From an archaeon (GTDB lineage: Archaea; Aenigmatarchaeota; Aenigmatarchaeia; GW2011-AR5), in contig DATDXW010000039.1 in NCBI GenBank assembly GCA_035289125.1, positions 1 through 42,801 of the forward strand: a stretch of DNA of 42,801 nucleotides, in the 5' to 3' direction. Below the pieces are notes generated by a model that did no database searches, had not been told where the DNA came from, and worked only from the letters and a program-made list of their open reading frames with translations. Below, one piece after another: positions 494 to 37,262 of this stretch. Numbering within the stretch: position 1 is the stretch's first letter; each line of letters begins with the position of its first letter. A program made the translations under genes and the position numbers.

Positions 494-1504
494 TCAGATT
501 ATCCCCGTCGTCCTCAGCACGTCTTCCGCCTTCTTCGCATCAAGCTTCACTTCGTTAAGTATCGTATATCTGTCGCGCGCGTCCTTCGCCGTTATCATCG
601 CCTTTATCATGATTTTCTTTGATATTCCAATGGCGCCCAGCGTGACAGGCAGCGCGAAGCTTTCACACAGTTTCTTTATTCTCGCCCAGTCGCCCCCCTG
701 CAAATAAGACGTGACAATGGAAGCGAGCGCGACCTGCTCGCCGTGCAACGCTCCCGCGCCCAGCGCATCCAACGCATGGGAAATGTTATGCTCGCTTCCA
801 GAACACGGACGAGACGAGCCATAGACGTTCATCGCGAAGCCCGAGCTTATCAGCGCCCAGAGAAGCATCTCCGCGCCGTGATCCGTCATATTCCTTATGT
901 CCGATATGTTTTCTTCCACCGCCTTCACGGAAAGCAACGAAAGTTCCGCCATCACCGTATGGTATTTCTCTTTCCCGGCTTTGTCGGCTATCCGCCAGTC
1001 TTCCACCGCCGAAATATTGGATATTACGTCTCCGGCTCCCGATGCATTGTTCCTGTAAGGCGCTTTCTTTATCACGTCCAAATCCGCAACTATCGCCGCC
1101 GGCTCGACCGCCTCAACACTCGCTTTCACGCCGTTCGAGTCAAGCGACGCGCGCGAAGAAACAACACCGTCGTGGCTCAACACTGTGGGAAATGCAATCC
1201 ACGGCTTCTTTGCAATAAAAGCCGGATATTTTGCCGCGTCTATTGCGCGCCCGCCTCCCATGCCTATCACGAAGTCGTAACTTTCAAGCGTCTTAGCTAT
1301 CTCTTCCAGCCGCTTCTTCTCCATCGAATCCGGCGTTATGAACGAGATGTCGAAACGCGAAAGCGCCCTTTCCACGTTAACAATTTTTCGTATGCCTGGA
1401 TCGGTGATTATCACGCACCTTTTGCCAAATCCTTCCAATAGCGACGGCAATTCTTTGGCTATGCCCTTGCCGATGAGCACACTTGACGGAAATCTCTTTA
1501 TCAT
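494..1504 (-). CDS. egsA: Glycerol-1-phosphate dehydrogenase [NAD(P)+] (archaeal lipid backbone synthesis)
   Basis: 336 aa. Iron-ADH/DHQS-like motifs GMGGGRAIDAAKY, SGSEHNISHALD and HGEQVALASI. Size and motifs match archaeal G1PDH. Confidence 0.85.
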   Translation of the reverse strand: MIKRFPSSVLIGKGIAKELPSLLEGFGKRCVIITDPGIRKIVNVERALSRFDISFITPDSMEKKRLEEIAKTLESYDFVIGMGGGRAIDAAKYPAFIAKKPWIAFPTVLSHDGVVSSRASLDSNGVKASVEAVEPAAIVADLDVIKKAPYRNNASGAGDVISNISAVEDWRIADKAGKEKYHTVMAELSLLSVKAVEENISDIRNMTDHGAEMLLWALISSGFAMNVYGSSRPCSGSEHNISHALDALGAGALHGEQVALASIVTSYLQGGDWARIKKLCESFALPVTLGAIGISKKIMIKAMITAKDARDRYTILNEVKLDAKKAEDVLRTTGII

Positions 1505-2298
1505 AATGCCCCTCCCAGTACTGCAACGATAACGTTCCCGTAAACCGCCGTCATTATCAGGGTTATGGGATAAACAGGAACGAACCGCACGCCTTCCTTT
1601 ATTATGACTTTTTTCTTTTTCCTCTTTATATCCGCCACTTCTTCTTTAGTCATCCCCCGCCACACCATGTCATCCAGCACATCCCCTTCCCTTAGCTGCG
1701 CGGAGCTTATCTCTTTCCTGAAGACATGCTTTTCTATCACGAGCGCATATCGCCAGAATACTGCAAGCAAGGACGTGATTGCGAAAACCGAAAAGGCGTA
1801 TTCTGGCGTTATTCCAAGGGACAATGAAACGACGAGTAACACGCCCACAAGTCCGACAACCCAGTGAAACGCCTTGTTATCCTTCGCGTCTTTTACCAAC
1901 AACGAAAAAACTTCCGGGTTCATCGCGCCGAGCGCTAACGAGTAGACTATCATATACGCCGAGCTCACGATGCTGAAATTAACCGCGTAATCAAAGAGTA
2001 TAGGCGCGTTGCCCAGCACAGGAACCATGAACAGTATCGAAGCCGGCACCCACGCGTCCGCCTCGCCCCACTTGCCTGCTCTGTACAGCAGCAAACCGGG
2101 CACAAGAAAAGCAAGTCCGGAAAGCAGCGACAGCACGAAAGGCGCGATGCTTTCCGCAAACAGCGACGCAACAAACCAGTAAAACAATCCGAAAGCGCTC
2201 ATCGCCACCGGAAGCTCATCCGGCACTTCCGTCGTTTTCAGGTCCCATAGTCCTGCTATCGCCGAGCCGGCTGCGGCAAGGGGGAAAAGAATGTTCAT
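1501..2298 (-). CDS. A24-family prepilin/preflagellin peptidase-like membrane protein
   Basis: 265-aa polytopic membrane ORF. Two candidate catalytic Asp motifs: WDLKTTEVPDE near the N-terminus and GKWGEADAW (GxGD-like). It overlaps the egsA start by 4 nt. The window contains many class III signal peptide substrates. Confidence 0.6.
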   Translation of the reverse strand: MNILFPLAAAGSAIAGLWDLKTTEVPDELPVAMSAFGLFYWFVASLFAESIAPFVLSLLSGLAFLVPGLLLYRAGKWGEADAWVPASILFMVPVLGNAPILFDYAVNFSIVSSAYMIVYSLALGAMNPEVFSLLVKDAKDNKAFHWVVGLVGVLLVVSLSLGITPEYAFSVFAITSLLAVFWRYALVIEKHVFRKEISSAQLREGDVLDDMVWRGMTKEEVADIKRKKKKVIIKEGVRFVPVYPITLIMTAVYGNVIVAVLGGAL

Positions 2299-3123: not shown

Positions 3124-3372
3124 TGTAAACTGCCCGCTAGTGAAGGACGCAAAGGAACTGGACAGCGAAGCTGTCATGCAGCATCGTGCGTCAGTTGCTC
3201 GTGACGCGCGGCAAAAGCGAAGCTGTCATGCAGTCGCGTCATTGCAAGAAGCATTACGAAAATAGTAGGAAAAGACTTTCCGCGCGTGATTCAATTTTTA
3301 GCAGGGCGTGCTCGTTTTCGCCTTTACCTACCGCGGTATCCATGCCGCCCAGTCTGGATTTGATAGTGTAAA
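3124..3372. repeat. Degenerate copy of the MITE-like intergenic repeat family, carrying an inverted copy of the 40-nt gcaacttgacgcac core module
   Basis: The 5' end tgtaaactgcccgc resembles gtaaactacccgcc at 32875 and 34513. 3165-3204 is the reverse complement of 32888-32927 with about 4 differences. agcgaagctgtcatgcag is repeated at 3164 and 3216. A half palindrome aaagactttcc lies at 3276. The 3' end is gtgtaaaag. Confidence 0.5.
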
Positions 3373-3530
3373 AGCTCTTTGCCAGCATCCAGATATTCCG
3401 TTACATGAACCGCCATCTTCATCTCATTTGCAGCATCGCCCGGAACGTATTCTTCCATAAAGCGGATACAGGCACGAAGAGCATTCTCTTGGCGCTGGGC
3501 GGCGCGCATCGTTTCCGTGACAACAACCAT
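3324..3530 (-). CDS. Possible small hypothetical protein (68 aa)
   Basis: ORF with tatataaaa about 35 nt upstream on the minus strand. Its 3' end overlaps the repeat element. No family recognised. Confidence 0.25.
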   Translation of the reverse strand: MVVVTETMRAAQRQENALRACIRFMEEYVPGDAANEMKMAVHVTEYLDAGKELLHYQIQTGRHGYRGR

Positions 3531-3562
3531 AATCTTATTTCACGTCAATCTATTAAAAATCA

Positions 3563-3571
3563 TTTTATATA
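3563..3571 (+). promoter_or_regulatory. TATA-box-like element for trmI (could also serve the divergent small ORF)
   Basis: ttttatata lies about 25 nt upstream of the ATG at 3593. That spacing fits an archaeal promoter with a short or absent leader. Confidence 0.4.
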
Positions 3572-3592
3572 CCCTCCCGCGCATTTTTCCTT

Positions 3593-4312
3593 ATGATGGT
3601 TCTGCTTGCGGGAAAAAGAAGGATATTGATAGACACCTCCGCAAAGAGCGTGAACACGGACTTCGGAAAAATAAACTTGACGAAAATAAAGAAATACGGG
3701 CAGAAGATAAAATCGTCAACCGGCGATTCATTCGTCGCGCTCAAGCCTTCGTTTGTGGACTTACTGAAGAAAGCCAAGCGGGGACCGCAGGTAGTAACGC
3801 CAAAGGACGCGGCGCAAATCGTCGCGCTTACGGGCGCCGAGTCGGGCTGGAACTGCCTTGATGCCGGAGGCGGTTCGGGCTTTCTTTCGCTGTTCATCGC
3901 GAACATCGTGAAGCCGGGCGCCGTTACAACGTATGAAAGAACGAAAGAGTCAGCTGAAAAAATAAGGGGCAACGCGAAGCTTTTCGGCTTGAACAACATA
4001 ACCGTGAAAAACAAGGACGTGCTGAAGGGCTTCAACGAGAAGAATCTTGATTTGATAACTCTCGACATGCTCGGCGCGGAGAAAATGGTGAAGCCGTGCC
4101 ATCGCGCCTTGAAGGAAGGCGGATGGCTTTCCATCTACAGCCCGCACATTGAGCAGCAGCTCCGCTGCATAAAAGAGATGGACAATCTGAAAATGGAACA
4201 CGCAACGGTGGAGAACACGCGCCGCTTCTGGAAATCCGAAGCCGGCTTCACGCATCCCTTCCACACGCAACTGGCGCACACCGGCTTTATAACGGTGGCG
4301 CGGAAAATCTGA
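3593..4312 (+). CDS. trmI: tRNA (adenine-N1)-methyltransferase, Trm61/TrmI (GCD14) family
   Basis: 239 aa. RGPQVVTPKDAAQIV followed by the SAM motif LDAGGGSGFLSLFIA matches the TrmI architecture. Confidence 0.8.
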   Translation: MMVLLAGKRRILIDTSAKSVNTDFGKINLTKIKKYGQKIKSSTGDSFVALKPSFVDLLKKAKRGPQVVTPKDAAQIVALTGAESGWNCLDAGGGSGFLSLFIANIVKPGAVTTYERTKESAEKIRGNAKLFGLNNITVKNKDVLKGFNEKNLDLITLDMLGAEKMVKPCHRALKEGGWLSIYSPHIEQQLRCIKEMDNLKMEHATVENTRRFWKSEAGFTHPFHTQLAHTGFITVARKI

Positions 4313-5623: not shown

Positions 5624-6763
5624 TCAGCATTGCGGGCGTGCCGTGTAAACGCCCTGCGCGTCGGCGCACTGCGTCGTGACTCGTACAGATGAAAAGTCTG
5701 ACGGGCATGAAAGCACGCCTTTCCCGTCGTCAAATTTCCAGTATCCAACAAGGTCGTTGGTATTCGGAACCGCAAATGCGCCCATGTTCATGCTGTCGTT
5801 TATCTCGTTGCCTCCGAGCGAGCGATTCCACACCTGCACTTCGTCTATCGTGCCGTTGTAATATCCACTGACAGCATCTCTCAGCTTGCCTATATTGAGA
5901 TCGAGTGCCGACACAAGCAGGTCCCCGTTGCTGGGAATCCATGAAGAGGAGTTCTTTACTGTTCCGTCAACGTAAAGCATTGTGGAGTTCCCTGATTTGG
6001 AGCCTGTGCATGCCACATAATACCATATTCCCGGCTGGGCCTCCTTATCAAAACTCTGGATATACGTGCTGGCATCGGCAAATTCGCATCCCCAACCAAA
6101 CAATGCGTCTCCCCCGCCTAGAGATATCGCGTAAGGAGGCACACTGAGAGATGCATCAAATTTCTGTACGACTCTATACCATGTCACAGTTTTATTCGCT
6201 TTCAGCCATGCCGCTACTGTTATCTCTCGGAGTATGTTGAGAGCTGAACTGGTCGGGACCCTCACATAATCATCCACGCCGTCAAACGACATGGCACCCC
6301 CTTTCTTGCCGCTGAGCAGGTAAGCGCATGTCTGATTTCCTGCGCTCATGCCATAGCATATTCCATTGTTGATTCGCAACGAAGAATCCGCCGTGCCGTT
6401 CGTGTTGTACGGCATCTTGAACGTAAGCGTTCCCATTTGCCCAACGTTCAGCGTAAGCGTGTTGTTTGCCGAAAAATTGTTGCCCAGCCTGTCGTAAAGC
6501 TGCCCGCTCGTCACTGCGAGATTGTCCACGTTGCCGCTGTTCTGAACGATAACAGACGCCGTGCCGTTGTTTCCGGCGCCGATGAAAACGTTATTAATTG
6601 TTATCGCCGAAGAAGAGCACGATAGGGCGGAAGCCGTCCTATTGGACACTTCGTTTTGCGACGAAGAGAAAGTAGACGTCGTCCATCCGGAAACGATAGA
6701 AGCGACAGTAACGGTTATCGCTATCAGCAGAATCGAAGCGAGCAACGGAGATATTCCTTTCAT
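5624..6763 (-). CDS. Type IV pilin-like protein with class III signal peptide and an internal LamG (concanavalin-like) domain
   Basis: Likely start is MKG/ISPLLASILLIAITVTVA at 6763; the ORF track start at 6829 is an in-frame leader. LamG_3 signature: MSFDGVDDYVRVP...LYVDG...YNGTIDEVQVWNRSL. The C-terminus keeps the Cys-x(n)-Cys tail shared with the short pilins. Confidence 0.8.
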   Translation of the reverse strand: MKGISPLLASILLIAITVTVASIVSGWTTSTFSSSQNEVSNRTASALSCSSSAITINNVFIGAGNNGTASVIVQNSGNVDNLAVTSGQLYDRLGNNFSANNTLTLNVGQMGTLTFKMPYNTNGTADSSLRINNGICYGMSAGNQTCAYLLSGKKGGAMSFDGVDDYVRVPTSSALNILREITVAAWLKANKTVTWYRVVQKFDASLSVPPYAISLGGGDALFGWGCEFADASTYIQSFDKEAQPGIWYYVACTGSKSGNSTMLYVDGTVKNSSSWIPSNGDLLVSALDLNIGKLRDAVSGYYNGTIDEVQVWNRSLGGNEINDSMNMGAFAVPNTNDLVGYWKFDDGKGVLSCPSDFSSVRVTTQCADAQGVYTARPQC

Positions 6764-6764
6764 A

Positions 6765-6830
6765 TCCCCTTGTTCACTTCGGCAACTTGACGCACTTCGT
6801 GCGTCTGACAGCATCCAAGCCGATGCCATG
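6765..6830. repeat. Left arm of the 66-bp inverted repeat (5' leader of the LamG pilin gene)
   Basis: Reverse complement of 8192-8257, identical at 64 of 66 positions by hand alignment. Contains the SD-like aagggga directly 5' of the ATG at 6763. Confidence 0.9.
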
Positions 6831-6875
6831 TTCTATGTTTCATGCGGATATTTTCACGTCCTCGATTTAAGAGTC

Positions 6876-8114
6876 TTACAGCGCCCGCGCCGACGCACCG
6901 GCATGCCAACTCTGCCTCGGCTTAATCCTGATTTTGTATATCCGCTCCGAGTCGTCGTCCAAGATTATAGCCGAGCCTTTCAGCTTCGGCAGTTCGTTTA
7001 TGTATTTTGCGATGTTAAAGAGAACGTAAGTCTGCATTATTGACTTCAGCGAATCCACGTCATTTTCAGCCGTAAGTCTGTGTGAAATGATGATGTCGCA
7101 TTGCGACAGCGCATCGGGATGCAGTTTCATCGGCCGTTGCGTGGCAAGAACCAGCGAGATACCGGGTTGTCGCCCTTCCTTCACTATCTTGCTTAATATC
7201 TCGGACGATGGACTCGACGCATCGGACGGCAAAAAGTTATGCGCCTCGTCTATGAAAATCCATGGAAGCGGCACGCCCGAGCCTTCGGAAAACTCCATCT
7301 CCCCTATCTCCTCGCGCCTGCGCGCCGCCGTTCTTTCCGCGAATATCTTTCGCGCGATGACCGCCACGAGTAGCGAGCGCACGTTCTGCGACGTAAGACT
7401 GAAGTCAAGCACGGAAAGCTTGCCGGGCGCAAGAAACGGCGGCATGCCTGCATTGCCGAATATGCCCCACGCCTTGGCATTCTCCAGCATGCCTTCCAGG
7501 GCAATCTTCTCGTGCTCAAACCCGCGCTCTTCGCGGAGCGCCCGTATAATATCGTCTATGCTGAACGGGTTGCTCATTTTTCCTATGACTAACTGAAGCA
7601 GAGAACCTAAAGGAGACACGGGGGAAAGATTGAAAGTCGCCAGCCAGTCCTCCTGCGTCAGCTCCTGCGGCGCGAGCGAAAGCACTCCGTCATAGTCCAC
7701 CCCTGCGGCTGAAAAAGCCTTTGCCTGCCCTTCCGGCACGTATACGAAAGCCGGGAAGCCCCTGACGGTCTCGCCCCATTCATGGAGAAGCGCCGTTTCT
7801 TTTTCGTTCGGAGTCTTCATCGTCCAGAATACTCCCTGCGTATCGATTATTATCGTGCAGAGGCGGTCCTTTATTTCCCGGGGCGCGTTCTGCAAACCTT
7901 CGGCTATGGTTCCCATGCTGTACGACTTACCCTCGCCCCTCTTGCCGCAAATCGTTATCACATGCGGCCTCACTATATCAAGCATCACTGGCGTCGTGAG
8001 ATGTATATCCTCGCCTTCACCCGCAAGACTTTTGCCTATGTCTATGGCTCCTCTTGAGCCATACGTTTCTTTGTCCTTGATGTCCCTGCCGATTATCGTT
8101 TCCATAACGCCCAA
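6876..8114 (-). CDS. HerA/DUF87-like P-loop ATPase (FtsK-HerA superfamily)
   Basis: 412 aa. Walker A CGKRGEGKSYS, Walker B PWIFIDEAHNF, then LVLATQRP and IISHRL motifs typical of DUF87/HerA ATPases. No NurA or other nuclease partner is adjacent. Confidence 0.7.
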   Translation of the reverse strand: MGVMETIIGRDIKDKETYGSRGAIDIGKSLAGEGEDIHLTTPVMLDIVRPHVITICGKRGEGKSYSMGTIAEGLQNAPREIKDRLCTIIIDTQGVFWTMKTPNEKETALLHEWGETVRGFPAFVYVPEGQAKAFSAAGVDYDGVLSLAPQELTQEDWLATFNLSPVSPLGSLLQLVIGKMSNPFSIDDIIRALREERGFEHEKIALEGMLENAKAWGIFGNAGMPPFLAPGKLSVLDFSLTSQNVRSLLVAVIARKIFAERTAARRREEIGEMEFSEGSGVPLPWIFIDEAHNFLPSDASSPSSEILSKIVKEGRQPGISLVLATQRPMKLHPDALSQCDIIISHRLTAENDVDSLKSIMQTYVLFNIAKYINELPKLKGSAIILDDDSERIYKIRIKPRQSWHAGASARAL

Positions 8115-8191
8115 AAAATATTGTCTTCGTTATTATTTATCGCTCTGCCAACGTCATAGAGAAACAGTGATGGCTAGGATGAGCAGGATAA

Positions 8192-8257
8192 CATGGCATC
8201 GGCTTGGATGCTGTCATATGCACGAAGTGCGTCAAGTTGCCGAAGTGAACAAGGGGA
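8192..8257. repeat. Right arm of the 66-bp inverted repeat (orphan leader copy)
   Basis: See 6765-6830. This copy is followed by a stop after 24 codons (MASAWMLSYARSASSCRSEQGEKT*) and not by a pilin ORF. Confidence 0.9.
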
Positions 8258-8268
8258 GAAGACATAAT

Positions 8269-8304
8269 ATGGCATCGACTTGTGAACGAAGTGAACAAGG
8301 GGAT
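8269..8304 (+). repeat. Short deletion derivative of the same leader module
   Basis: atggcatcgacttgtgaacgaagtgaacaaggggat retains both ends of the 66-bp unit but lacks the roughly 40-nt gcaacttgacgcac core. Confidence 0.8.
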
Positions 8305-8313
8305 ATTGATATA

Positions 8314-8895
8314 TCATAATGCGGTGGTGGTTGCCAGTATGAGCAGGAAGCAGAGCACCCAGAATTTCGCGTCCCATGCGAAGACCTTGCTACCGTCCAG
8401 CGGCGGGAATGGTATCATGTTGAACAGAGCAAGCTGCAGATTCACCCGCGCTCCGATTGCCGCAACGTCGCCCAGATATCCACCCAGTAAAAAGAACGCC
8501 AGCGCAATGAAGACGTTGGAAGCCGGGCCCGCTATGGATATGATTCCGTTCATGCTCTTCGTTATCGCCTTTGTTCGCCCCCATATGTCAGCCCGCGATT
8601 GTATGTATACGGCGCCCGGCGCCGCAAATATCACGCCAAAGAGGGATAGCGCAAGCGCTGCCACTATTCCGGTATTCCACATCCTGTACTCCGCATAAGC
8701 CCCGTAGGCACGGGCAACGAACCGATGGCAAAGCTCATGCAGCACGAAACCCGATGACACAGAAGCAAGGAACATCCCGACCGCGTAAAGCGAGAGCCCA
8801 TCTATGCCCGAAAGCCCGCCGTTATCCGCCAGCGCAAAAGCCACTGCCAAAGCCACAGCCGAAACCACTATGTCCTGCGCTTCTTTGCGTTCCAC
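8314..8895 (-). CDS. Site-2 protease family (M50) membrane metalloprotease
   Basis: HELCHRFVARAYG (HExxH) and NMIPFPPLDGSKV motifs. I moved the start to the in-frame GTG at 8895, because the first 64 codons of the track ORF overlap the SRP RNA gene. Confidence 0.8.
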   Translation of the reverse strand: MERKEAQDIVVSAVALAVAFALADNGGLSGIDGLSLYAVGMFLASVSSGFVLHELCHRFVARAYGAYAEYRMWNTGIVAALALSLFGVIFAAPGAVYIQSRADIWGRTKAITKSMNGIISIAGPASNVFIALAFFLLGGYLGDVAAIGARVNLQLALFNMIPFPPLDGSKVFAWDAKFWVLCFLLILATTTAL

Positions 8896-8909
8896 TGAAT
8901 CACCATGAT

Positions 8910-9280
8910 GGAGGCGCGCCCTCGGTAGACAGCCCGCGAACAGCAGGTTTGTCCTCCGCGATTGCTCGGTCCGGCGAACCCGCGAGCACCCCGTGTACGG
9001 GTTACGGTTGCTGCCTTCCAGCCCTGGCCGGTTTGCCGCGCAGGAATCCCGCAGGACCGGGCGTCTTCGCTCCTGCGAAGGGCCCACTATCCGCGTGCCG
9101 CCGTCCTCAGGCTTCGGCCCCGGCTGAAGCGGTTTGCCGTTTATGAACCGTGCATGGCATTACATGGCGGAATCTACGATTCCGCCCGTACAGGTGGAGC
9201 TTTGCTCCACCATGTATATGGCACTGCTTCCTGTGCATCGGTTTGTCATAGGTGCCCGCTAAACACCCGGCCTAGCCTCC
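8910..9280 (-). ncRNA. ffs: Signal recognition particle RNA (7S/SRP RNA)
   Basis: GC-rich, highly self-complementary stretch. The minus strand starts GGAGGCTAGGCCGGG and ends GCGCCTCC, so the termini pair. An internal CCAGGGCTGGAAGGCAGCAACCGTAACCC matches the conserved helix-8 pattern (GGAA tetraloop plus AGCA). Ends are approximate. Confidence 0.8.
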
Positions 9281-9329
9281 AAGAATTATTCGGAAGGAAT
9301 GTACTTAAACGGGAAAAATCGGTTCTGTC

Positions 9330-9389: not shown

Positions 9390-9872
9390 ATGGCGATAAA
9401 GACAGGAGTTTTCAAATGGAATATTACGGAAATATCAAAAGCCCTCAAAATAAAGGAAGCGGACGTAAGACTCTATTTCACGGACGGGCGCAGAGTTTCT
9501 TTCATACTTGAAAGAAGAATCGCCTATGAAATACTAAAAGGTTCGCTTGCCCCAAGCGAAGGGGCGGGTTATGATGTTCTTGATACCGATGGCGGGAAGT
9601 GGGAAGTAAGAAGCATAAGCAAGGATGGCATATATTTCTGTCCGAGTTATATGGTAGGGTCTGGTCGCAAGTTTGAATTACAAGGTTTCCTAAAGAAACT
9701 GAAAGAAGTGAGAGGTTATATAATTTCAGATATAGAGTCTTTCCCAGAAGTGCCGTTTTGGATAATACCCGTAGAACAGGTTAAACGGTGGTGGGAACAC
9801 GGAAAGTTAGGAAAGAATACGAAAATTACCCGTGCTACTGCTTTAAGTCTTATTGCTAATTTGTCTGGATAG
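9390..9872 (+). CDS. Putative type II restriction endonuclease (PD-(D/E)xK-like)
   Basis: 160 aa, convergent with the methyltransferase and overlapping it by 30 nt. Candidate catalytic stretch is GYDVLDTDGGKWEVRSISK. AT-rich like its partner. No family recognised by eye. Confidence 0.45.
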   Translation: MAIKTGVFKWNITEISKALKIKEADVRLYFTDGRRVSFILERRIAYEILKGSLAPSEGAGYDVLDTDGGKWEVRSISKDGIYFCPSYMVGSGRKFELQGFLKKLKEVRGYIISDIESFPEVPFWIIPVEQVKRWWEHGKLGKNTKITRATALSLIANLSG

Positions 9873-10655
9873 AAAAGCTTGCGATAACTTATCCCGTGAA
9901 ATCTTCGCATAGTGCGGGTCTATCTCAAAGCCTATGAATTTGCATCCTAATTTCTTCGCCACTACACAAGTCGTTCCAGAGCCGAGAAATGGGTCCAAAA
10001 CTACTGTGTTCTGATTATGACCGTGAAGCTTGATGCACATTTCAGGCAGTTGTTCGGGAAAAGAAGCGGGATGCTCTTTTTCAGACTGCACCGTTTTGTA
10101 GGGAATGAACCATATATTGCCTCTGTCTCTTTTATCTCCGTTGGATTTCCCGTGATTCCATCTATCTATATTTGACTTGTCTGCATAAGGAACGCCCGTA
10201 GCTAATTTATCTATATTTACATTCTTATTTTTTGTAAAATGAAAAATATACTCATGGCAGTTGTTTAGAAGCTTCCGGCTATTTACAGGCTTGAAATGCC
10301 CTATATTGATTTTGTGTTCTGGCACGGCAATGGATTTAACCCAATGGATAGTATTCTGTAATCTCAGGCGTTCACTTATCTGTCTCGCCGTTTCAAACGC
10401 CTTAAACTCGTCCGTTGCTTTGTCACCTATGTTGAAGAATAAAGAACCATTTTCCTTCAATACGCGTTTACAGGCTTTCCCGAATTCAAGCATCCACTTC
10501 AGATATTCGTCATATTTCAGCTTGTCCTTGTAAGTTTTGTATTGAACACCGATATTGTAAGGCGGAGATGTAACGATTATATCTATACTGTTTGCCTCTA
10601 AAACGCCGTTCATTCCTTTTATGCAATCCATTTCATAGATTTGATTTACTTCCAC
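9843..10655 (-). CDS. DNA methyltransferase, beta class (N4-cytosine or N6-adenine; N4/N6 MTase family)
   Basis: 270 aa. Motif IV IIVTSPPYN is near the N-terminus and motif I VLDPFLGSGTT near the C-terminus. GTG start preceded by ggggtg. Confidence 0.9.
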   Translation of the reverse strand: MEVNQIYEMDCIKGMNGVLEANSIDIIVTSPPYNIGVQYKTYKDKLKYDEYLKWMLEFGKACKRVLKENGSLFFNIGDKATDEFKAFETARQISERLRLQNTIHWVKSIAVPEHKINIGHFKPVNSRKLLNNCHEYIFHFTKNKNVNIDKLATGVPYADKSNIDRWNHGKSNGDKRDRGNIWFIPYKTVQSEKEHPASFPEQLPEMCIKLHGHNQNTVVLDPFLGSGTTCVVAKKLGCKFIGFEIDPHYAKISRDKLSQAFLSRQISNKT

Positions 10656-10964: not shown

Positions 10965-11414
10965 CTACGCGCACACCGGAGTCTCGCCCGCAGAACCGTA
11001 CTCGCCGGAAACGCCGCATCTTGTTGAAATAAAGGCGCGGCTGAAGTTCGCGCAGGCCGTTATCACGTTCGTCATGTTGAGGCTTACGCTTGCCTGCGAC
11101 CCGCGTGTTAAAGTCACGGGTAGCTGCGTCAGGTTCGTGGTTATCTGCCCGCGCGTATTCGTTATCGACGCGCCATTTATGGAATCGTCATCAAAGCCCG
11201 AGTTCCTTACGATTATCCGCCCAACCGAGTTTGCCATGTCCAGGTATACCTTTTCTATTACAACGGCTGCCGTATTGCATTCCATAGTCTTGTTCCTTAT
11301 ATCGTTGCCCGTGGACGCCTGGATATTGACCATCCAGTTCAGCGTCAGCGTTGCAACGACTAGCACTATGCCCACAAGAATCACTGCCGCCACGAGCGTA
11401 GATATTCCTTTCAT
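10965..11414 (-). CDS. Short type IV pilin-like protein (class III signal peptide)
   Basis: MKG/ISTLVAAVILVGIVLVVA N-terminus. Shared paralog motifs ECNTAAVVIEKVYLD...IIVRNSG and C-terminal CANFS...C. Confidence 0.8.
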   Translation of the reverse strand: MKGISTLVAAVILVGIVLVVATLTLNWMVNIQASTGNDIRNKTMECNTAAVVIEKVYLDMANSVGRIIVRNSGFDDDSINGASITNTRGQITTNLTQLPVTLTRGSQASVSLNMTNVITACANFSRAFISTRCGVSGEYGSAGETPVCA

Positions 11415-11851
11415 CAGCAGCCCTCCGCCCTTGTAGTCTCGTCTGACAGGCAGCTCGTGGTTATCACGGATTTGCTGTAATTCGCGCAGGCCGGCAACGC
11501 GCTGCTGAGGTTAAATGTTATGAGCGCCCGCTGGCCCCGCGACATGTCCATCGGCAACTGCGACGCATTGGCAAGCGCCATGCCGACTCCTCTCTTGTTC
11601 AGTATACTCGCGCTCACCACCTGAGCGTCGCCTTTTGCCAGAACGTACATCCTGCTCACGTTATTCTGGAAATCCAGATAAACGTTTTCTATGGTAACGA
11701 CGTTGCATTCCGTGACGAACGAGGACTTGTTTGAGAGTGCCTGCGTATCTTTCCGCACAAGCGTAAGAGCCCACGGACTCAAAATAGTGGCAAGCGTGAA
11801 AGCTATTGCCAGCAGCAGAACGGAAGCTATCAGCGGCGATATTCCTTTCAT
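11414..11851 (-). CDS. Short type IV pilin-like protein (class III signal peptide)
   Basis: MKG/ISPLIASVLLLAIAF (start taken at the second ATG). ECNVVTIENVYLD and CANYS...C motifs. Its stop overlaps the start of the downstream pilin gene. Confidence 0.8.
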   Translation of the reverse strand: MKGISPLIASVLLLAIAFTLATILSPWALTLVRKDTQALSNKSSFVTECNVVTIENVYLDFQNNVSRMYVLAKGDAQVVSASILNKRGVGMALANASQLPMDMSRGQRALITFNLSSALPACANYSKSVITTSCLSDETTRAEGC

Positions 11852-11897
11852 AATCAATATTTTGTGCCGATTCTATATAAATAAGTCTTTGCCGTGT

Positions 11898-14843
11898 TCA
11901 GCCTATAGCTCTGTTGATTATTTTCACTTCGTCTATCACGCCATTGAAGAATGATGTTGGATTGTCTCGGCGGGTGGCGCCTATAGTAAATCCCGTATCT
12001 GCGTTGCATACATTGCCCGTAGTAGGCACGGGCGCGCTCGCATCAAGAATTCCATCAACATAAAGCATGATTTGCATGCCATTGTAAACCATAGCGCCAT
12101 GATGCCATGCGTTATCATTGATAATCGTATTTCCGGTGATGTCAAATCTGTTTGTTGGATTAACACAACCGCCCGTATAGCCCGCGCCGTGCAAAGTTCT
12201 TTCTGTCGGATATTTGATAATCACGATGCCCGAGCCGCCCGAGCCGCCATTATTAGTTCCCGCCGCGCCTCCGCCTCCTCCTGTATTCGCAGTGCCTGAT
12301 GCGCCATTGCCTCCAGAAGCGCCCGCTCCTCCTCCGCAGGTGGCGGAACCTCCTGAGGTAGCTCCGCCTCCTCCTCCTCCGCCCGCATAACAGACGGAAG
12401 AACCGGAGATGCTGTTGCTTGTTCCGTTTCCTCCCGCTCCTCCAGCATTTCCATTTCCATTTGCTCCTGCCGAGGAAGCTCCACCGCCACCGCCTCCACC
12501 GAATGCCTTTGTAACGCCATTGCCGCCATTATTTCCTTGCGATGGAGAAGTGCTTGGCGTGTTGCCCGCGCCTCCCAAGCCCGGAGTATGAGCCTCTCCG
12601 CCGCCGCCGGAACCACCTGCTGCTCCATTAACATTTCCTCCCATACTGCCTGCTGTTCCTCCTCCACGGCCTCCGCCTGTTGCGGTTATCGTGCTGAATA
12701 TAGAAGCTGTGCCATTTTCATTATTTACGCTATTGGGAACGGCTCCCACGCCTCCAGCTCCAACCGTTACGGTGTATGCTTGAGCGGTAATGCCGAAAGA
12801 CGGATTATACCTATATCCTCCCGCTCCGCCGCCGCCAGAGCGTCCGCTACTATATGAGCCGCCGCCGCCGCCGCCAACAACGAGGACTTCGGCATTAAGA
12901 TTTCTATTTGCCGTGAATGTTCCGCTACTTGTAAATGTGTGAATGGTATAACCTCCACTGTATGTTATTGTTCCGCCTGTTACATTATCACTGCCCGTGA
13001 ACATGGTAAATGCTCCGGGACTAAACCCTGACGCAAATTTATCAAATATTGTCCCGCTCGTGCTATTTGAATTGGACGTTTTAAACCATCCACTAACTGT
13101 AAATGATGTAGTGTTTTGCCACGCATAATCGGAATTCACGACATAATCATTAATGCCGTCAAAAGTGAGTGCTTTCTCATATCGGCCAGTGTAATCATAT
13201 ATGTGCGAGTCATACGCCGTCGTGCCTGTGCCTTCTTCAAATCTCCATGCTCCTACAATACCGTGTCTTACCATTACGTTATTCATGCTCTGATTTATTT
13301 CTGCCGCATTCAATGCGCGATTCCAGATTTGGACTTCATCAATGGAACCAGTAAAATAAGTTTCCATGCCTGCATTGGAATTGTAACCTATAGTCAAAGG
13401 ATAAATATAGTTAGTCATCGTGATAGCGCCACTTACTGGCAAACTCGTTACCGCCACATTTCGCAATTTCAAATAGTTACCGCTTCCTCCTGTCCCAGAA
13501 CCGTCATCCAATTTGAATCTAACATACAGAGGCGTAGTAATTGAGGAACCTGTATAAGAGAGGTCTTGCCAGTTGCCGTTGGTGGAACCTGTTGTTTGAC
13601 TTTGTGTAGTCCATGACGTTCCATCGGTACTGGTTTGTAAGTGAACTGTTGTGCCCCAGTTAGAGCCGCCTACTCCTTGTGCTGAAACAGTGCCTGACCA
13701 CCTTTTGGGAAGTATGGTAGCATTTTTCCCAAGTTGAAGAAGGTGACTTATGCCCCATCCACTTCCTCCTTTCCCTCGCACCTCTGTGCCCTGGTAGAGA
13801 ATGGCCGCTCCTCCTTCCGTTGCCGCAGTAATATCAAAATATTTTAGAGCATCTGCTAATGAATTAAGTTCAATAACAGAATTAATGGCTTCAAACTGCG
13901 TGGACCTATTTTCAGTACCTTTTAGTACTCCATTAATATATATTGATGCAGTAAAATCATCATATGTTCCTACTAAATGATACCAGCCCGTAGATGTAAT
14001 ACTATTATCTCCGCCTGTTACCTCTATCACAGAAGAATTACCAATGACTGCAAATCTAATCTGGTTTACTCTTGATAGAGATGCCCTATCATCCCAAAAA
14101 ACTGCATATCCGTCTGCACCACGAATATTTGTTCTTGACAATATATATGCAACATGATTATCTAACGAAGCAGAACTCGTATCAATATAAACCCATGCAG
14201 ATACTGTTACGGTATTAGTTGGATTTAAACTTGACGAATTTAAAATATTGACATAATCATTAATCCCGTCAAATTTCATCGCGTTCCCGTACTTCCCATC
14301 TACCTGTGCAGGGCAATCAGGACACGCGGGGCGCAATGTCCCGTCATTCCAGCTCTCGCCGGAAAACGTGCCGTCGCTACCACCGACGGAATCTTTAACG
14401 ACTGTGCTCAATGTTGCGTCATCAAACTGCCAATAATTGGAAAGAACAACCGGATTGTCCGCGTCTATTTCATTTCCTGCGGCGACTATTTTTATTTTTC
14501 CAACTGGCAGACTCGCCAGCTCTATCTGATTGAAAACCAGCGTGCCGACCCTGCCCGGCGCTATCGGGGATGCGAGCGTCGCTGTAACGGGCGTTCCGTT
14601 CATCAGCGTGGTTACCTGCGTGACAGGCGACGAGCCTACGTTCTTTATCGTAATCGTCCCGCTGCCGGATGCCACGGGTCCTATTAACTGCCCCTGCGTG
14701 AAAATTTGCGACTGTGTTGCCTGCTCGGCTTGTGTGCCGCTTTGCACGACAACCGTCTGGAAAAACGCAGCGGTGAAGCCGATTATTGATATCGTGATGA
14801 GAAGTAATAATATTATCGCGATGACGGACGTTATTCCTTTCAT
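11898..14843 (-). CDS. Giant pilin-like surface protein: class III signal peptide, several LamG domains, and a glycine-rich domain nested in the last LamG domain
   Basis: 981 aa. N-terminus MKG/ITSVIAIILLLLITISIIGF. Three LamG signatures: KFDGINDYVNIL, GSIDEVQIWNRAL and LTFDGINDYVV...NGVIDEVKIINRAIG. Gly-rich block YTIHTFTSSGTFTA...VVGGGGGG...GGSGIVIIKYP. Confidence 0.85.
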   Translation of the reverse strand: MKGITSVIAIILLLLITISIIGFTAAFFQTVVVQSGTQAEQATQSQIFTQGQLIGPVASGSGTITIKNVGSSPVTQVTTLMNGTPVTATLASPIAPGRVGTLVFNQIELASLPVGKIKIVAAGNEIDADNPVVLSNYWQFDDATLSTVVKDSVGGSDGTFSGESWNDGTLRPACPDCPAQVDGKYGNAMKFDGINDYVNILNSSSLNPTNTVTVSAWVYIDTSSASLDNHVAYILSRTNIRGADGYAVFWDDRASLSRVNQIRFAVIGNSSVIEVTGGDNSITSTGWYHLVGTYDDFTASIYINGVLKGTENRSTQFEAINSVIELNSLADALKYFDITAATEGGAAILYQGTEVRGKGGSGWGISHLLQLGKNATILPKRWSGTVSAQGVGGSNWGTTVHLQTSTDGTSWTTQSQTTGSTNGNWQDLSYTGSSITTPLYVRFKLDDGSGTGGSGNYLKLRNVAVTSLPVSGAITMTNYIYPLTIGYNSNAGMETYFTGSIDEVQIWNRALNAAEINQSMNNVMVRHGIVGAWRFEEGTGTTAYDSHIYDYTGRYEKALTFDGINDYVVNSDYAWQNTTSFTVSGWFKTSNSNSTSGTIFDKFASGFSPGAFTMFTGSDNVTGGTITYSGGYTIHTFTSSGTFTANRNLNAEVLVVGGGGGGSYSSGRSGGGGAGGYRYNPSFGITAQAYTVTVGAGGVGAVPNSVNNENGTASIFSTITATGGGRGGGTAGSMGGNVNGAAGGSGGGGEAHTPGLGGAGNTPSTSPSQGNNGGNGVTKAFGGGGGGGASSAGANGNGNAGGAGGNGTSNSISGSSVCYAGGGGGGGATSGGSATCGGGAGASGGNGASGTANTGGGGGAAGTNNGGSGGSGIVIIKYPTERTLHGAGYTGGCVNPTNRFDITGNTIINDNAWHHGAMVYNGMQIMLYVDGILDASAPVPTTGNVCNADTGFTIGATRRDNPTSFFNGVIDEVKIINRAIG

Positions 14844-14992
14844 GATATATATTGCACGTCCGTAGTATTAAAATTAAACGTACCGTCAGGGCTTTGTTTA
14901 AATAATCTGTCGCAATACGATGGGTTGCGATGTTTGCTTTCTGAAACACAACGAGCTGTGGTATGAAACCATTTATTAAACAAAGCCTACCG

Positions 14993-15466
14993 TCAGCATC
15001 CCTTTGGCACGCCATCAAATCTCACGGAATCGCACGCGCTCCCCACTATTGCGAAAGAGAAATTGGCGCATGCCGGTATCAACGAAGACGTATCAAAGTT
15101 GAAATAGGCGTAGCCTCCTCTCGTCACGTTCACTGGAAACTCCGTGAGGTTCGTCGCCGGCGTTCCCGTGTTGGAATAAACCACAGCCGAGCGCACCTGT
15201 TCGTTCGTATAGCCGGAGTTTCTTACTATCATCCTTGCGCGGCTGTTCGCATTGTCCAAGTATACGTCTTCTATGCTCAGCGACGCCGCGTTGCATCGAA
15301 CGGTCTCATCCGTCTTGTTTTCCACAGTCTTCGTCGTTGAGCCGATAAGCGTGTTGAACCATCCGGCAAATATCGGCACGACCGTGACAGCTATGGCTAC
15401 CATAAGCACCGCCGCGAGAATCGGCGAGATTCCTTTCTTATGCGATGAACCTGACATTCTTTGCAC
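14993..15466 (-). CDS. Short type IV pilin-like protein (class III signal peptide)
   Basis: KKG/ISPILAAVLMVAIAVTVV. RCNAASLSIEDVYLD...MIVRNSG and CANFS...C motifs shared with 10965 and 11414. Confidence 0.8.
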   Translation of the reverse strand: MQRMSGSSHKKGISPILAAVLMVAIAVTVVPIFAGWFNTLIGSTTKTVENKTDETVRCNAASLSIEDVYLDNANSRARMIVRNSGYTNEQVRSAVVYSNTGTPATNLTEFPVNVTRGGYAYFNFDTSSLIPACANFSFAIVGSACDSVRFDGVPKGC

Positions 15467-15519
15467 CCCTAATCTTTTGAAACATTTTGTCGTCGGCGGT
15501 TATAAGTATGACAGATACA

Positions 15520-15750
15520 TCAAGAACGAGACGCATAGCGTTTGCCCCTCCACTCCCTAACTATGTCCGTCATATTGGGACTTTTTTTAGAGGACACTTC
15601 CTTTCGTATGATGTCCATGGCATTGGAAGCCCTCTGTATTTTCGCATTATCGCTATATTTTGACACCGTCATATACTCAAATCTCCCTCCCTTGTGTCTC
15701 TTCCGCATCCTGTCCTGAAACGCCATGACTTTCGCCATTTCTATTATCAT
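15520..15750 (-). CDS. Hypothetical 76-aa protein
   Basis: ORF with tttaaataaaaa about 20 nt upstream of the ATG on the minus strand. No family recognised. Confidence 0.4.
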   Translation of the reverse strand: MIIEMAKVMAFQDRMRKRHKGGRFEYMTVSKYSDNAKIQRASNAMDIIRKEVSSKKSPNMTDIVREWRGKRYASRS

Positions 15751-15840
15751 GAGAATATGTGACGCGCTTTTTATTTAAACTTTCTTGCCGCGAACACTTG
15801 TCACGGTAAAGACTAAGACGCGCCAGTCAAACTGCTGAAA

Positions 15841-15968
15841 GAAAAGGACTCATCAGGCATGGTTGTATTTTAGCGGTGCGGTTCGTCTTCGGCTTTATTA
15901 CAAGGAATTCGTAGAATTCCTTGTATGCCCAAAGACTTTCCACGGAAAGTCTTTGTTGTACTTGTTGC
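15841..15968 (+). repeat. Core of a MITE-like intergenic repeat (copy 1) with two long palindromes
   Basis: Aligns with 34558-34684. Palindromes are caaggaattcgtagaattccttg (15901-15923) and caaagactttccacggaaagtctttg (15930-15955). Weaker similarity extends to about 15820-16065. Confidence 0.85.
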
Positions 15969-16071
15969 CGTCCTGTCAAAGAGTGAACCACTAATCCGCA
16001 CCCATCTCAGCTGCCCGCCAAAGATGTGCAGCTTTCGTTATGCAGGAATGTATTTGAAAGAACAAGCGGGA

Positions 16072-16209
16072 TTATAAATTATTTCTTTTTCCGAGCTCCA
16101 CAGCAATGTCATATAAAACGTTTATATGTGTGGTTTCTTCCTTATCACTGTCCGTTATACCTCTTTCCAATTTCCTCTGTACTACATGGTTACTATATCT
16201 TAATTTCAT
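16072..16209 (-). CDS. 45-aa ORF resembling the N-terminus of DUF4258-type small toxins (possible truncated remnant)
   Basis: MKLRYSNHVVQRKLERGITDSD resembles the common MKIRYSxHAxxRMxERGI start of DUF4258 proteins, and the ORF then ends early. gaggg precedes the ATG. Confidence 0.2.
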   Translation of the reverse strand: MKLRYSNHVVQRKLERGITDSDKEETTHINVLYDIAVELGKRNNL

Positions 16210-16219
16210 TCCATAGCCC

Positions 16220-18220: not shown

Positions 18221-18392
18221 GCTATTTCTTTCGCGGTGGCGGTATTTATTTGTGGAGTAAAGGCTAAAGACAGGGATTTCGGCAAGGCAATCTAGCTGGC
18301 GCACGTGAGGTTAACGAACCCGCCATGAAACAAAAAGATTCGCGATGCCCTTTTCGTCTCTACTCTCCCGTCGCAATGCCGCAAAACCAACC

Positions 18393-34812: not shown

Positions 34813-34893
34813 CATAATATGGCATCGCCTCGCGAAGCGAGGAATAGTCAGATATAATATGGGATACGACGCATTCGCAGAATGCGGGGTATG
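34813..34893 (+). repeat. Orphan copy of the leader-like module (ATAATATGGCATCG ... GGGGTATGG)
   Basis: Aligns with the aspS leader (reverse complement of 37167-37262), including the second box ataatatgggatacg and the downstream ATG. Here the ATG is followed by only one sense codon and then a stop. Confidence 0.7.
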
Positions 34894-35070
34894 GATACAG
34901 ATTCACGAATGAAATGAGTGAAGGGTATTGGGAATATGTAAGCAGCGCGTAATCATATAATTATAGCATCGACTTTTTGACGCAGCAAAAAGGGGATATG
35001 GAATCGCTTTATTTCCCTTGTAAAAACGTATATATATCCCACAGCTACAAATAACAGCAAAGGTTTCGAT

Positions 35071-37166: not shown

Positions 37167-37262
37167 ACGAATCCACCATACCCCTCGCTCACTTCGTTCG
37201 CAAGTGCGTATCCCATATTATCATTTGCTCCTTGCTCCACAAGTCGATGCCATATTATTATA
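37167..37262 (-). repeat. Leader-like repeat module forming the 5' leader of aspS
   Basis: Minus strand reads ataataatatggcatcgacttgtgg...ataatatgggatacg...gaacgaagtgagcgaggggtatggtggattcgtATG. Related copies at 6765-6845, 8185-8257, 8263-8304 and 34813-34893. Confidence 0.75.

Follow-up and report, generated by a model that had tools for sequence, protein, structure and literature searches.

Inverted hairpin-unit repeats and a natural DNA inversion adjoining a pilin gene in an uncultivated Aenigmatarchaeota archaeon

Is the ATPase gene that stands between two near-identical, inversely oriented repeats next to a pilin gene carried by a segment that turns round in nature, and if so, by which process and with what consequence for the pilin? 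The question was addressed in a stretch of 42,801 nucleotides, here called the window, which is a housekeeping region of an uncultivated Candidatus Aenigmatarchaeota (DPANN) archaeon. The locus is rich in pilin paralogs and has the following features.

5624..6763, minus strand: gene encoding a LamG-domain (Laminin_G_3) archaeal type IV pilin; within 170 nt the gene lacks a TATA box of its own
6760..6832, minus strand: left arm, a long-form hairpin unit directly upstream of the pilin gene; variant cagacgcac (6803, 6805)
6782..6815, minus strand: nested hairpin insert of 34 nt, gatgctgtca GACGCAC gaa GTGCGTC aagttgc; mirror copy at 8207-8240
6833..8189, no strand: invertible segment of 1357 bp; opposite orientation in eight public contigs, the window's orientation in one
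6876..8105, minus strand: gene of a predicted HerA/FtsK-superfamily (DUF87) ATPase, 409 aa from ATG; conserved in DPANN with 41-86% identity
8130..8141, minus strand: putative TATA-like promoter element of the ATPase gene, gataaataataa, about 27 nt upstream of the ATG; position predicted from the sequence
8154..8189, minus strand: pseudo-copy of the M50 3' end, ILLILAITVSL plus stop, adjoining the right arm on its inner side
8190..8262, plus strand: right arm, a long-form hairpin unit pointing outward to the M50 3' end; variant catatgcac (8217, 8219)
8264..8306, plus strand: short unit, ataatatggcatcg - hairpin - aaggggatat, the basic form of the repeat family
8314..8868, minus strand: gene of an M50-family membrane metalloprotease; its 3' end faces the right arm and the short unit

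A repeat search and direct comparison gave two arms of 73 nt (6760-6832 and 8190-8262), which are identical at 69 of 73 positions (95% complementarity in the repeat search) and have 1357 nt between them. The preliminary description had reported a near-perfect inverted repeat of 66 bp inside these arms (6765-6830 and 8192-8257), and the count of 64 identities in 66 positions was reproduced. The internal differences are solely those at 6803/6805 versus 8219/8217 (cgtctg versus catatg). The longest exact inverted match in the window was 38 nt, compared to 13-18 nt when the window was simulated 20 times with a first-order Markov model. It was also correct that the arms enclose exactly one gene, that of the ATPase, and that the left arm, which terminates in aaggggat, abuts the pilin ATG at 6763. 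The right arm indeed opens a small ORF, with 23 codons instead of the 24 claimed.

The ATPase ORF spans 6876-8114 when read from a TTG; the ATG at 8105 is the start in public gene calls. The product matched Pfam DUF87 with 29.1 bits (cut-off 23.2) and fell short of the NCBIfam HerA equivalog with a best score of 60.5 bits (cut-off 850), while matches to HerA in the PDB span residues 225-385 only. Judged by these matches, the enclosed gene is a predicted HerA/FtsK-superfamily ATPase and not a HerA orthologue. The pilin scored 26.6 bits with TIGR02537 (class III signal peptide, cut-off 20) and 19.6 bits, which is under the cut-off, with Pfam Pilin_N; its N-terminus, MKGISPLLASILLIAITV, is paralogous to those of other pilins in the window. 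The M50 gene comprises at most 8314-8868, because the ORF 8314-9087 and the SRP RNA gene (8908-9282) overlap. SRP RNA and tRNAs were the sole Rfam matches in the whole window in gathering and E-value modes, and both modes were negative for the arms and the units.

The orientation of the segment was compared with public metagenome assembly contigs of strains about 99% identical to the window; exact-protein look-ups with the 412-aa ATPase, both versions of the pilin ORF and AsxRS returned no contigs. The samples from which L001-L008 and L217-L219 derive are the ENA assemblies ERZ28563625, ERZ4903055, ERZ4903072, ERZ4903137, ERZ27254752, ERZ27254754 and ERZ27254767, JGI 3300025317 and 3300025323, and the SRA runs SRR3989342, SRR3989344 and SRR2090153. 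The segment was inverted with respect to the window in eight contigs (L001, L002, L003, L004, L005, L006, L007 and L217), and one contig, L008, was collinear with the window and had the segment in the same orientation. The flipped orientation is thus the commoner one among the contigs. Flanks were 98-100% identical in contigs of both orientations. L004 equals the window with 6765-8257 inverted and shows essentially no other difference: the length is kept, and the flanks are collinear with 99.5-100% identity and an offset of +167 on both sides. The inversion between the arms that had been suggested as possible from the window was therefore found in near-identical strains. Because both orientations occur in metagenome assemblies, we concluded that this is a real, natural DNA inversion adjoining a pilin gene.

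In all eight flipped contigs the long right arm adjoins the 3' end of the ATPase gene, and a long pilin-side arm is present in each of the seven that reach there (L217 begins within the ATPase gene). On its left side the un-flipped L008 carries a long arm, on its right side nothing but short units; because a long right arm is missing, its orientation is unambiguous. Position 6834 is G in both window-orientation contigs (the window and L008) and T in all flipped contigs. This tracking of orientation suggests few events and not free switching; as a correlation it is as compatible with rare events as with switching. Between haplotypes the arm variants form a mosaic. In the pair of window and L004 the arm-specific SNPs remain with the flanks, which places the crossover in the inner 27 nt of the arm. 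These 27 nt contain the conserved box of the repeat family, ATGGCATCG, which could equally be the target of a site-specific enzyme. The left junction of the window, including G at 6834, matches L008. The right junction, with the long arm beside the pseudo-M50 end, recurs in none of the independent contigs, and co-occurring strains may have been merged into a chimeric window haplotype. JGI sample 3300025323 contains at least two right-side versions (L008 and L218, with the orientation read for L008 alone). No flip was seen in a second, poorly matched inverted pair of units (30 nt, 83%): the window and the contigs L222, L223 and L224 agree in its orientation.

None of 21 related Aenigmatarchaeota loci has the repeat bracket around the ATPase gene. 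In the closest relative (L011) a spacer of 40 nt separates the M50 gene from the ATPase gene that follows it, and the pilin has an ordinary leaderless promoter. The co-directional order of M50 and ATPase genes in the window is the ancestral order in relatives. By its position the pseudo-M50 end is probably the homologue of the real M50 3' end in L011, and this positional homology favors the view that it is a duplicated M50 3' end. Together with 8314-8348 it makes up a direct repeat when the segment lies as in the window, and an inverted repeat when the segment is flipped. Its interpretation as a relic of a pilin N-terminus is less likely, with a similarity of about 70% including a gap and a misfit in strand and position.

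What, then, are the arms? They are long forms of a lineage-specific family of two-tier hairpin units and not dedicated recombination sites. Outside the arms, units of the family were located at 8264, at locus L099 (seven units, 351-671) and in two further intergenic regions of the window.

34814..35000, plus strand: four to five units in an array, sense orientation, with the IF5A gene on one side and a 71-aa gene on the other
37180..37258, minus strand: two tandem units between a 77-aa gene and the AsxRS gene, sense orientation

The two-tier hairpin was common to all nine full units with z-scores of -1.6 to -4.0. Pairing was judged by per-unit folding; the MAFFT alignment of the units was insufficiently structure-aware. 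The basal stem covaries (AUC/GAU versus AUAC/GUAU), and the upper stems come in five different versions, each of which is fully complementary. Comparison of long and short forms showed that the long arm differs from the short unit by the nested 34-nt insert. Thus the 36-nt element at 8269-8304, previously taken for a deletion derivative of the arm, is the basic short form instead, and the arms are short units extended by the nested hairpin. Nested inserts are present in some strains and absent in others, and in L224 one unit of the 34814-35000 array bears an insert of 33 nt. Number and type of units vary even between strains of about 99% identity; on the right side other strains have one to three short units, and short units occur on the pilin side too. 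The 3' end of the unit is SD-like. The units sit in co-directional intergenic spacers, always in sense orientation, and the genes downstream of them (AsxRS, a glycosyltransferase, the 71-aa gene) are unrelated. The description of the arm as the 5' leader of the pilin gene is right in that the arm lies directly upstream of it; it is not unique to this gene, the arms being copies of a dispersed family. No target-site duplications were seen around family units. Their stems differ with compensatory changes and the window has no transposase gene, unlike what is expected for mobile repeats of the REP/BIME or MITE type. One metagenome scan with a 16-nt degenerate unit pattern, which was too unspecific, gave chance matches at 117 of 120 loci; L099, L109 and L168 were related.

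In appearance the units are intercistronic modules that combine a hairpin with a Shine-Dalgarno sequence, and not promoters. As promoter cassettes they were rejected: their TATA-like ATAATAT box scored poorly on a matrix from 18 leaderless genes of the window, and there is no strong TATA upstream of the pilin. An N-terminal extension of the pilin was likewise considered, since arm and short unit are open in the pilin frame (ORF calls of 401 aa and 432 aa). It was dropped because, ahead of AsxRS and of the L099 glycosyltransferase, the same unit lies in another frame or is interrupted by a stop.

Most genes of the window are leaderless with a TTTAWATA box that ends 18-29 nt before the start codon (8-12 bits). 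With the matrix from the 18 leaderless genes, no TATA match above 5.6 bits was detected upstream of the pilin in any haplotype. Direct reading of the interval from the ATPase stop codon to the pilin ATG (6764-6875) revealed no T-run. The TATA-like box of the ATPase gene is kept in L011 and moves with the segment. Because the units are not promoter-like, the pilin is without a good TATA and the genes are co-directional, the ATPase transcript may run into the pilin gene. A small position-weight matrix and the missing T-runs are the basis of these statements on promoters and read-through.

Taken together, we consider it probable, with a likelihood of roughly 0.6, that the arms are inverted copies of the hairpin unit and that a conservative, most likely homologous recombination flipped the ATPase segment, with presumed consequences for expression. 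On this reading, conservative recombination between the arms has inverted the 1357-bp segment together with the ATPase gene and its promoter. The most likely mechanism would be homologous recombination of the RadA type, or gene conversion, over 70-125 nt of near-identity. Recombination between arms would explain why the natural population holds both orientations and unit-number variants. The data, with few events sampled, agree with inversion where homology is long: long arms were present in the flipped contigs, the un-flipped L008 was without the long right arm, and the 30-nt pair of 83% was un-inverted in four contigs. In the orientation of the window, where M50, ATPase and pilin genes follow each other on one strand, the ATPase transcript is predicted to pass through the left arm into the pilin. 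In the flipped orientation it would cross the right arm and enter the M50 gene as antisense, leaving the pilin uncoupled. The repeat and its family, the two orientations, the conservative flip and a window with no recombinase gene in its sizeable ORFs were observed directly; we infer the recombination mechanism, the read-through and any effects on expression from sequence.

Could the two orientations be due to the assembly, i.e. to a de Bruijn graph that orients a segment between inverted repeats arbitrarily? Assembly graphs do break there, since two Logan contigs (L009, L010) terminate within arms and two further contigs (L218, L219) begin within units. The right junction of the window without a second witness would also agree with an artefact. 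Yet MEGAHIT contigs with k=141 read across the 70-75-nt arms into unique sequence on either side (the inverted-repeat blocks measure 70-75 nt and 54 nt and are thus shorter than k), and the 19-22-nt insert by which the two sides differ in H3 contigs removes the ambiguity. In addition, L008 shows the orientation of the window with exact inverted matches of 20 nt at most, and the order of M50 and ATPase genes in the window is the one found in relatives. An assembly artefact is thus highly improbable. We give just as little credence to the right arm being the leftover leader of a lost pilin paralog, which the preliminary description had offered as an alternative. The arm and the sequence upstream of the pilin are almost the same, down to the SD-like aagggga end, and many pilin paralogs are present at the locus. 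On the other hand, units of the same family also precede the AsxRS, glycosyltransferase and 71-aa genes, the right-side units range from a long arm with one short unit to three short units, and the closest relative has just 40 nt between M50 and ATPase genes. The short unit is 7 nt (8307-8313) away from the M50 stop with no pilin-like remnant after it, and the inner side of the right arm bears the second copy of the M50 3' end instead.

A programmed phase variation would rely on an unlinked tyrosine or serine recombinase, encoded outside the window, that recognises a core in the inner arms; frequent flips of the promoter-plus-ATPase cassette would then turn the LamG pilin on by co-transcription and off by uncoupling. 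We regard this as unlikely, even though several observations agree with it. Both orientations were found in strains from apparently related sample series, at least two right-side versions share the JGI sample, and the crossover between window and L004 falls within the inner 27 nt with the conserved box. Furthermore, the segment holds the sole decent promoter, which faces through the arm to a surface-filament gene without a TATA of its own, and chromosomal invertons have been reported in archaea, though barely studied (PMC10028968). However, no recombinase, integrase or transposase domain was detected by Pfam in the sizeable ORFs of the 42.8 kb, as had been stated before. Classic inversion sites are short and fixed; the arms described here have 70-125 nt, are variable in number and come from a dispersed family. 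None of the related species examined has the bracket, orientation and the SNP at 6834 segregate together, and the second inverted unit pair, which has the same conserved box, is un-inverted in four contigs. Equally doubtful is a DPANN phase switch in which hairpin repeats seed recombination sites and the flip of a promoter-plus-ATPase cassette toggles the LamG pilin from co-transcription to silence and back, with antisense transcription into the M50 and SRP RNA genes. We favor the view that recombination between hairpin-unit copies inverted the segment.

DPANN archaea are thought to depend on host cells. Pilins with lectin-like LamG domains are obvious candidates for DPANN host contact, and the LamG type IV pilin of this locus is a candidate host-attachment adhesin of an episymbiont. 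If the inversion couples the pilin to the sole nearby promoter or uncouples it from there, it would be a rare and testable case of archaeal surface variation by DNA inversion. If the flip is a mere by-product of repeat recombination, a fast-evolving two-tier hairpin family would reshape intergenic regions and gene order within one groundwater population. Even then, assemblies of the population break or differ at the repeat sites.

The locus resembles bacterial invertons such as fimS with FimB/FimE in E. coli, the capsule promoters of Bacteroides and the Hin H-segment in Salmonella in the inverted-repeat bracket, the occurrence of both orientations, the internal promoter directed outward to a surface-filament gene and the length-conserving flip. 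It differs in that bacterial inverton arms have roughly 9-35 nt and those described here have 70-125 nt, vary in number and belong to a dispersed family. Moreover, an invertase gene is missing from the vicinity, a whole conserved gene lies within the segment, the flip leaves the sequence abutting the pilin unchanged, and the flip is known between assemblies.

Inversions by homologous recombination are known between inverted dispersed repeats like IS copies, rRNA operons and REP/BIME clusters; ISH-flanked inversions of the L segment of Halobacterium phage PhiH are an archaeal example. Common to these and the present case are inverted multi-copy repeats, orientation polymorphism, mosaic arm variants and independence of a dedicated enzyme. 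Here, however, the repeats are tiny non-coding hairpins (43-73 nt) and not IS elements or operons, and the inversion is found in a DPANN archaeon.

Short intergenic elements include REP/BIME, small dispersed or nested palindromic repeats, e.g. of cyanobacteria, and MITEs. The units share with them the tandem arrays, the strain-variable copy number, the hairpin nested in a loop and the intercistronic position. In contrast to one conserved palindrome, the upper stems are wholly different between units with compensatory changes. The units further have an SD-like 3' end, are always in sense orientation in co-directional spacers and are without target-site duplications. To our knowledge, neither a RAYT nor a transposase is a partner of the hairpin-unit family.

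Chromosomal invertons in Archaea have been minimally investigated so far; PhaVa (Chanin et al., PMC10028968) yielded 12 putative archaeal invertons in isolates of Euryarchaeota and Crenarchaeota, with no DPANN among them. The present case is similar in that a chromosomal inversion occurs between inverted repeats in an archaeon. The PhaVa cases were found as heterogeneity within cultures by long reads of single isolates (PMC10028968), whereas the inversion described here was observed between assemblies of an uncultivated population.

Direct comparison confirmed a near-perfect inverted repeat with one gene between its arms, and, as described, the left arm abuts the start codon (ATG at 6763) of an archaeal type IV pilin gene with a LamG domain. 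The arms are 73 nt each at a spacing of 1357 nt and agree in 69 of 73 positions, with 6803/6805 vs 8219/8217 as the sole internal differences. Exact inverted matches within the window reach 38 nt at most, compared with maxima of 13-18 nt in 20 first-order Markov simulations of it. The locus is composed as follows:

5624-6763, minus strand, LamG pilin gene
6760-6832, minus strand, left arm
6876-8105 from the ATG, ATPase gene, 409 aa
8190-8262, plus strand, right arm
8264-8306, plus strand, one short unit of 43 nt
8314-8868, minus strand, M50 membrane metalloprotease gene

The ATG of the ATPase gene is the start in public gene calls. The protein matched Pfam DUF87 above cut-off, fell far below the cut-off of all NCBIfam HerA equivalogs (60 bits vs 850), and PDB HerA structures matched its ATPase core only. 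Thus it is a HerA/FtsK-superfamily ATPase, not a HerA orthologue. Orthologues in other Aenigmatarchaeota (L021-L026, L028, L030) gave two-piece matches with ~350 to 1250 nt between the pieces, which suggests inteins or other insertions in several species. Because the long ORF 8314-9087 overlaps the archaeal SRP RNA (8908-9282), the M50 gene can span no more than 8314-8868, and the gene call in L004 has this form too. The right arm leads only to a short ORF as had been stated, its length being 23 codons instead of 24. With the M50 stop codon 7 nt beyond the short unit, the suggestion that the right arm is the relic of a lost pilin paralog was not supported.

The ATPase protein is encoded by exact match on 10 public contigs. 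Contigs were compared with the window by BLASTN and junctions were read directly.

Arrangements of the segment between the arms
H1: window; orientation as window; pilin side, long arm (cagacgcac); M50 side, long arm (catatgcac) and short unit
H2: L004; flipped; pilin side, long arm (cagacgcac); M50 side, long arm (catatgcac) and short unit
H3: L001, L002, L003, L005, L006, L007; flipped; pilin side, short unit, 22-nt mini-unit and long arm (catatgcac); M50 side, long arm and short unit
H4: L008 (JGI 3300025323); orientation as window; pilin side, long arm; M50 side, three tandem short units without long arm

L004 (ERZ27254767, a k141 contig) corresponds to the window once 6765-8257 is reverse-complemented. 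On either side of the segment the two are collinear, at 99.5% and 100% identity, and since the offset is +167 in both flanks the flip conserved length. In a further contig, L217, the right junction is of the flipped type, the ATPase gene ending next to the right arm. In all, 8 contigs from 8 assemblies are flipped, and the window and L008 are unflipped. L218, from the JGI sample of L008, begins inside the long right arm, so that JGI 3300025323 holds at least two versions of the right side; Logan contigs L009 and L010 end within the arms. A conservative inversion between the arms thus occurred at least once among ~99%-identical strains, and the proposed invertible segment was borne out as a natural inversion polymorphism. 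Phase variation at this segment is unproven.

We rejected the view that orientation is an assembly artefact. The inverted-repeat blocks measure 75 nt in L004, and 70 nt plus 54 nt in L001 and L005 with a 19-22-nt insert on one side only. Since k=141 exceeds the length of all these blocks, the MEGAHIT contigs are built on k-mers that bridge from unique flank into unique segment. In L008 exact inverted matches do not exceed 20 nt. The order of the window, M50 followed by a co-directional ATPase gene, is common elsewhere in Aenigmatarchaeota too (L011, L012, L014-L016, L019, L020, L027, L029, L030, L032). The right junction of the window, where the long arm lies next to 8154-8189, is without a second witness among the contigs, and the assembly may have merged co-occurring strains into a chimeric window haplotype. 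The left junction of the window, G at 6834 included, matches L008 exactly. Position 6834 lies 5 nt from the arm; the two unflipped contigs have G there and every flipped contig has T. The inverted segment is otherwise nearly invariant between strains. All four allele combinations of 8159 (C/A) and 6897 (T/C) are present, therefore strains recombine. In the pair of window and L004 the arm-specific variants remain with the flanks, which places the exchange within the 27 innermost nt, aacatggcatcggcttggatgctgtca. The catatg variant is found in both long arms of H3, where some right arms read attacatcgg; this arm mosaic indicates further exchange or conversion.

The closest relative, L011 (sister MAG JACQIE01; 83-85% nucleotide identity), has the ATPase gene after M50 on the same strand, with a 40-nt spacer that holds one hairpin and no units. 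In the window 8154-8189, just upstream of the conserved ATPase promoter gagcgataaataataac, encodes ILLILAITVSL* at the position of the true M50 3' end in L011 (FLLILAATVVL*); a second copy, at a distance of 160 nt, now forms the end of the M50 gene (8314-8348, FLLILATTTAL*). We infer from this an insertion of ~160 nt in the window lineage, made up of units and a new 3' end for M50. Repeats flanked the ATPase gene in none of 21 other Aenigmatarchaeota loci, and the relative orientation of M50 and ATPase differs in L018, L021 and L023-L025. The inverted segment lies at the edge of a large pilus/adhesin locus: 10965-18304 is a cluster of class-III-signal pilin genes, including 981-aa and 694-aa LamG proteins, and 1501-2298 (minus strand) weakly matches prepilin/preflagellin peptidase (A24/FlaK). 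At 9390-10655 an N4/N6 DNA methylase gene and a convergent 160-aa ORF without family match overlap each other. L011 lacks both at the equivalent position (pilins, SRP RNA, M50), and the pair looks like an inserted restriction-modification-type module.

The arms are not unique, as units of the form ataatatgg + [cauc or gauac] g(a) + 5-8-bp stem + loop + stem' + gg + [gau or guau] occur in several places:

8264-8306, plus strand, the short unit beside the right arm
37180-37258, minus strand, two units before the AsxRS gene
34814-35000, array of four to five units
L099 (contig of a related strain), seven units in the 320-nt spacer between a histone and a glycosyltransferase gene

All nine full units gave the same two-tier hairpin fold (z-scores -1.6 to -4.0). 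The basal stem covaries (ggCAUCg...ggGAUat vs ggGAUACg...ggGUAU), and five unrelated upper stems are fully complementary (CUUGU/ACAAG, CUUGC/GCGAG, CGCAUUC/GAAUGCG, CUUUUUG/CAAAAAG, UUCAC/GUGAA). Rfam gave no match to units or arms. The long arm is a short unit with 34 nt (gatgctgtca-GACGCAC-gaa-GTGCGTC-aagttgc) replacing 4 nt in the apical loop. A closely similar 33-nt insert (gatgggaacc-GACGCAC-agcg-GTGCGTC-aattcactcc) interrupts the unit at 34857 in L224 (contig of L001) and is absent from 34857-34897 of the window and from L222 and L223, all three matching L224 there in every other respect, a sign that nested mini-hairpins were recently gained or lost. Because such inserts vary in presence, the short form is basic and the arms are derived, and the identical nesting makes them recent copies of each other. 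The 36-nt copy had been taken for a deletion derivative, which is the reverse of this order.

Other repeats were seen in the window. One, gcgaagctgtcatgcagcatcgtgcgtca(a)gttgctcgtg (3160-3193 and 3210-3245, plus strand; 32899-32932, minus strand), partly resembles the 34-nt insert, and two copies form an inverted pair (34 nt, 91%) 29.7 kb apart. A ~170-nt repeat (15888-~16060, 33015-33180, 34601-34770; also L234 1-175, L168 ~3458-3623 and the sister MAG) forms two perfect hairpins (acgaggaattcgtagaattcctcgt; caaagactttccayggaaagtctttg), and its 3' part, ggctttcgg.g.gcgggttgtaaa, is conserved. Rfam gave no match to it and many public contigs end in it; this repeat may be a mobile element or a gene for a structured RNA. 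A 119-nt Rfam tRNA match (25506-25624, minus strand), missed by ARAGORN and possibly intron-containing, adjoins a perfect 30-nt direct repeat (25410-25439/25462-25491).

Window genes are mostly leaderless, and their TTTAWATA box has its end 18-29 nt upstream of the start codon. With a matrix from 18 such genes, typical promoters scored 8-12 bits and the ataatat box of the units below 3 bits. Outside the inversion locus all units lie in sense orientation in spacers between co-directional genes, each with a terminal AGGGG like the SD-like motifs before the internal genes FeADH, GNAT and pil154. On these grounds we rejected units as promoters; they look like intercistronic hairpin-plus-SD modules. 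Ahead of the pilin, over 170-240 nt in H1, H2 and H3, scores did not exceed 5.6 bits. The pilin orthologue of the sister MAG (64% amino acid identity) has an ordinary ttttatat box 22 nt before its ATG and no unit. The sole reasonable promoter is predicted inside the segment (8130-8141), and direct reading of the stretch from the ATPase stop codon to the pilin ATG showed no T-run. With the segment oriented as in the window, the transcript of the ATPase gene could run on across the SD-bearing arm and reach the pilin gene. With the segment flipped, it would cross the right arm and the short unit and become antisense to M50, while the pilin would face the back of the ATPase promoter. By symmetry, a sense-oriented arm would always abut the ATPase 3' end. 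The arm (6764-6844, minus strand) is open in frame with the pilin, giving a 401-aa ORF (432 aa in L002). In a second frame, there and in L002, it holds a short upstream ORF with its TGA overlapping the pilin start codon (atATGA). These two features are probably incidental, since ahead of other genes the same units are not open.

Inversion most likely proceeded by ordinary homologous recombination or conversion over 70-125 nt of near-identity, because the arms are dispersed, variable repeats and no recombinase gene is nearby: domain searches found no recombinase, integrase or transposase in any sizeable ORF of the window, as first described. The same is argued by the flipped contigs, with long arms on every side spanned, and unflipped L008, which lacks the long right arm, and by a second inverted unit pair (34814/37258; 30 nt, 83%) that keeps one orientation in the window, L222, L223 and L224. 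A site-specific enzyme encoded elsewhere is a less likely alternative. The window as a whole is a housekeeping region (FtsZ, GatA/B, two class II aminoacyl-tRNA synthetases, Hel308, RNase HII, Pus10).

A genome-wide paired-read survey reported no inversions in six archaeal datasets, and a long-read survey (Chanin et al., PMC10028968; PhaVa) listed 12 putative invertons in 42 Euryarchaeota and Crenarchaeota datasets, calling the topic minimally investigated. Our literature search for Aenigmarchaeota and inversion found nothing relevant. The hairpin repeat family to which the arms belong is previously undescribed, and the host is unusual for inversion between inverted repeats. Like a bacterial inverton, the locus has a predicted promoter on a flippable segment adjoining a surface-filament gene. 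Unlike one, it has no adjacent invertase, its arms are long and variable, and it is not conserved. Recombination between inverted dispersed repeats is the better fit.
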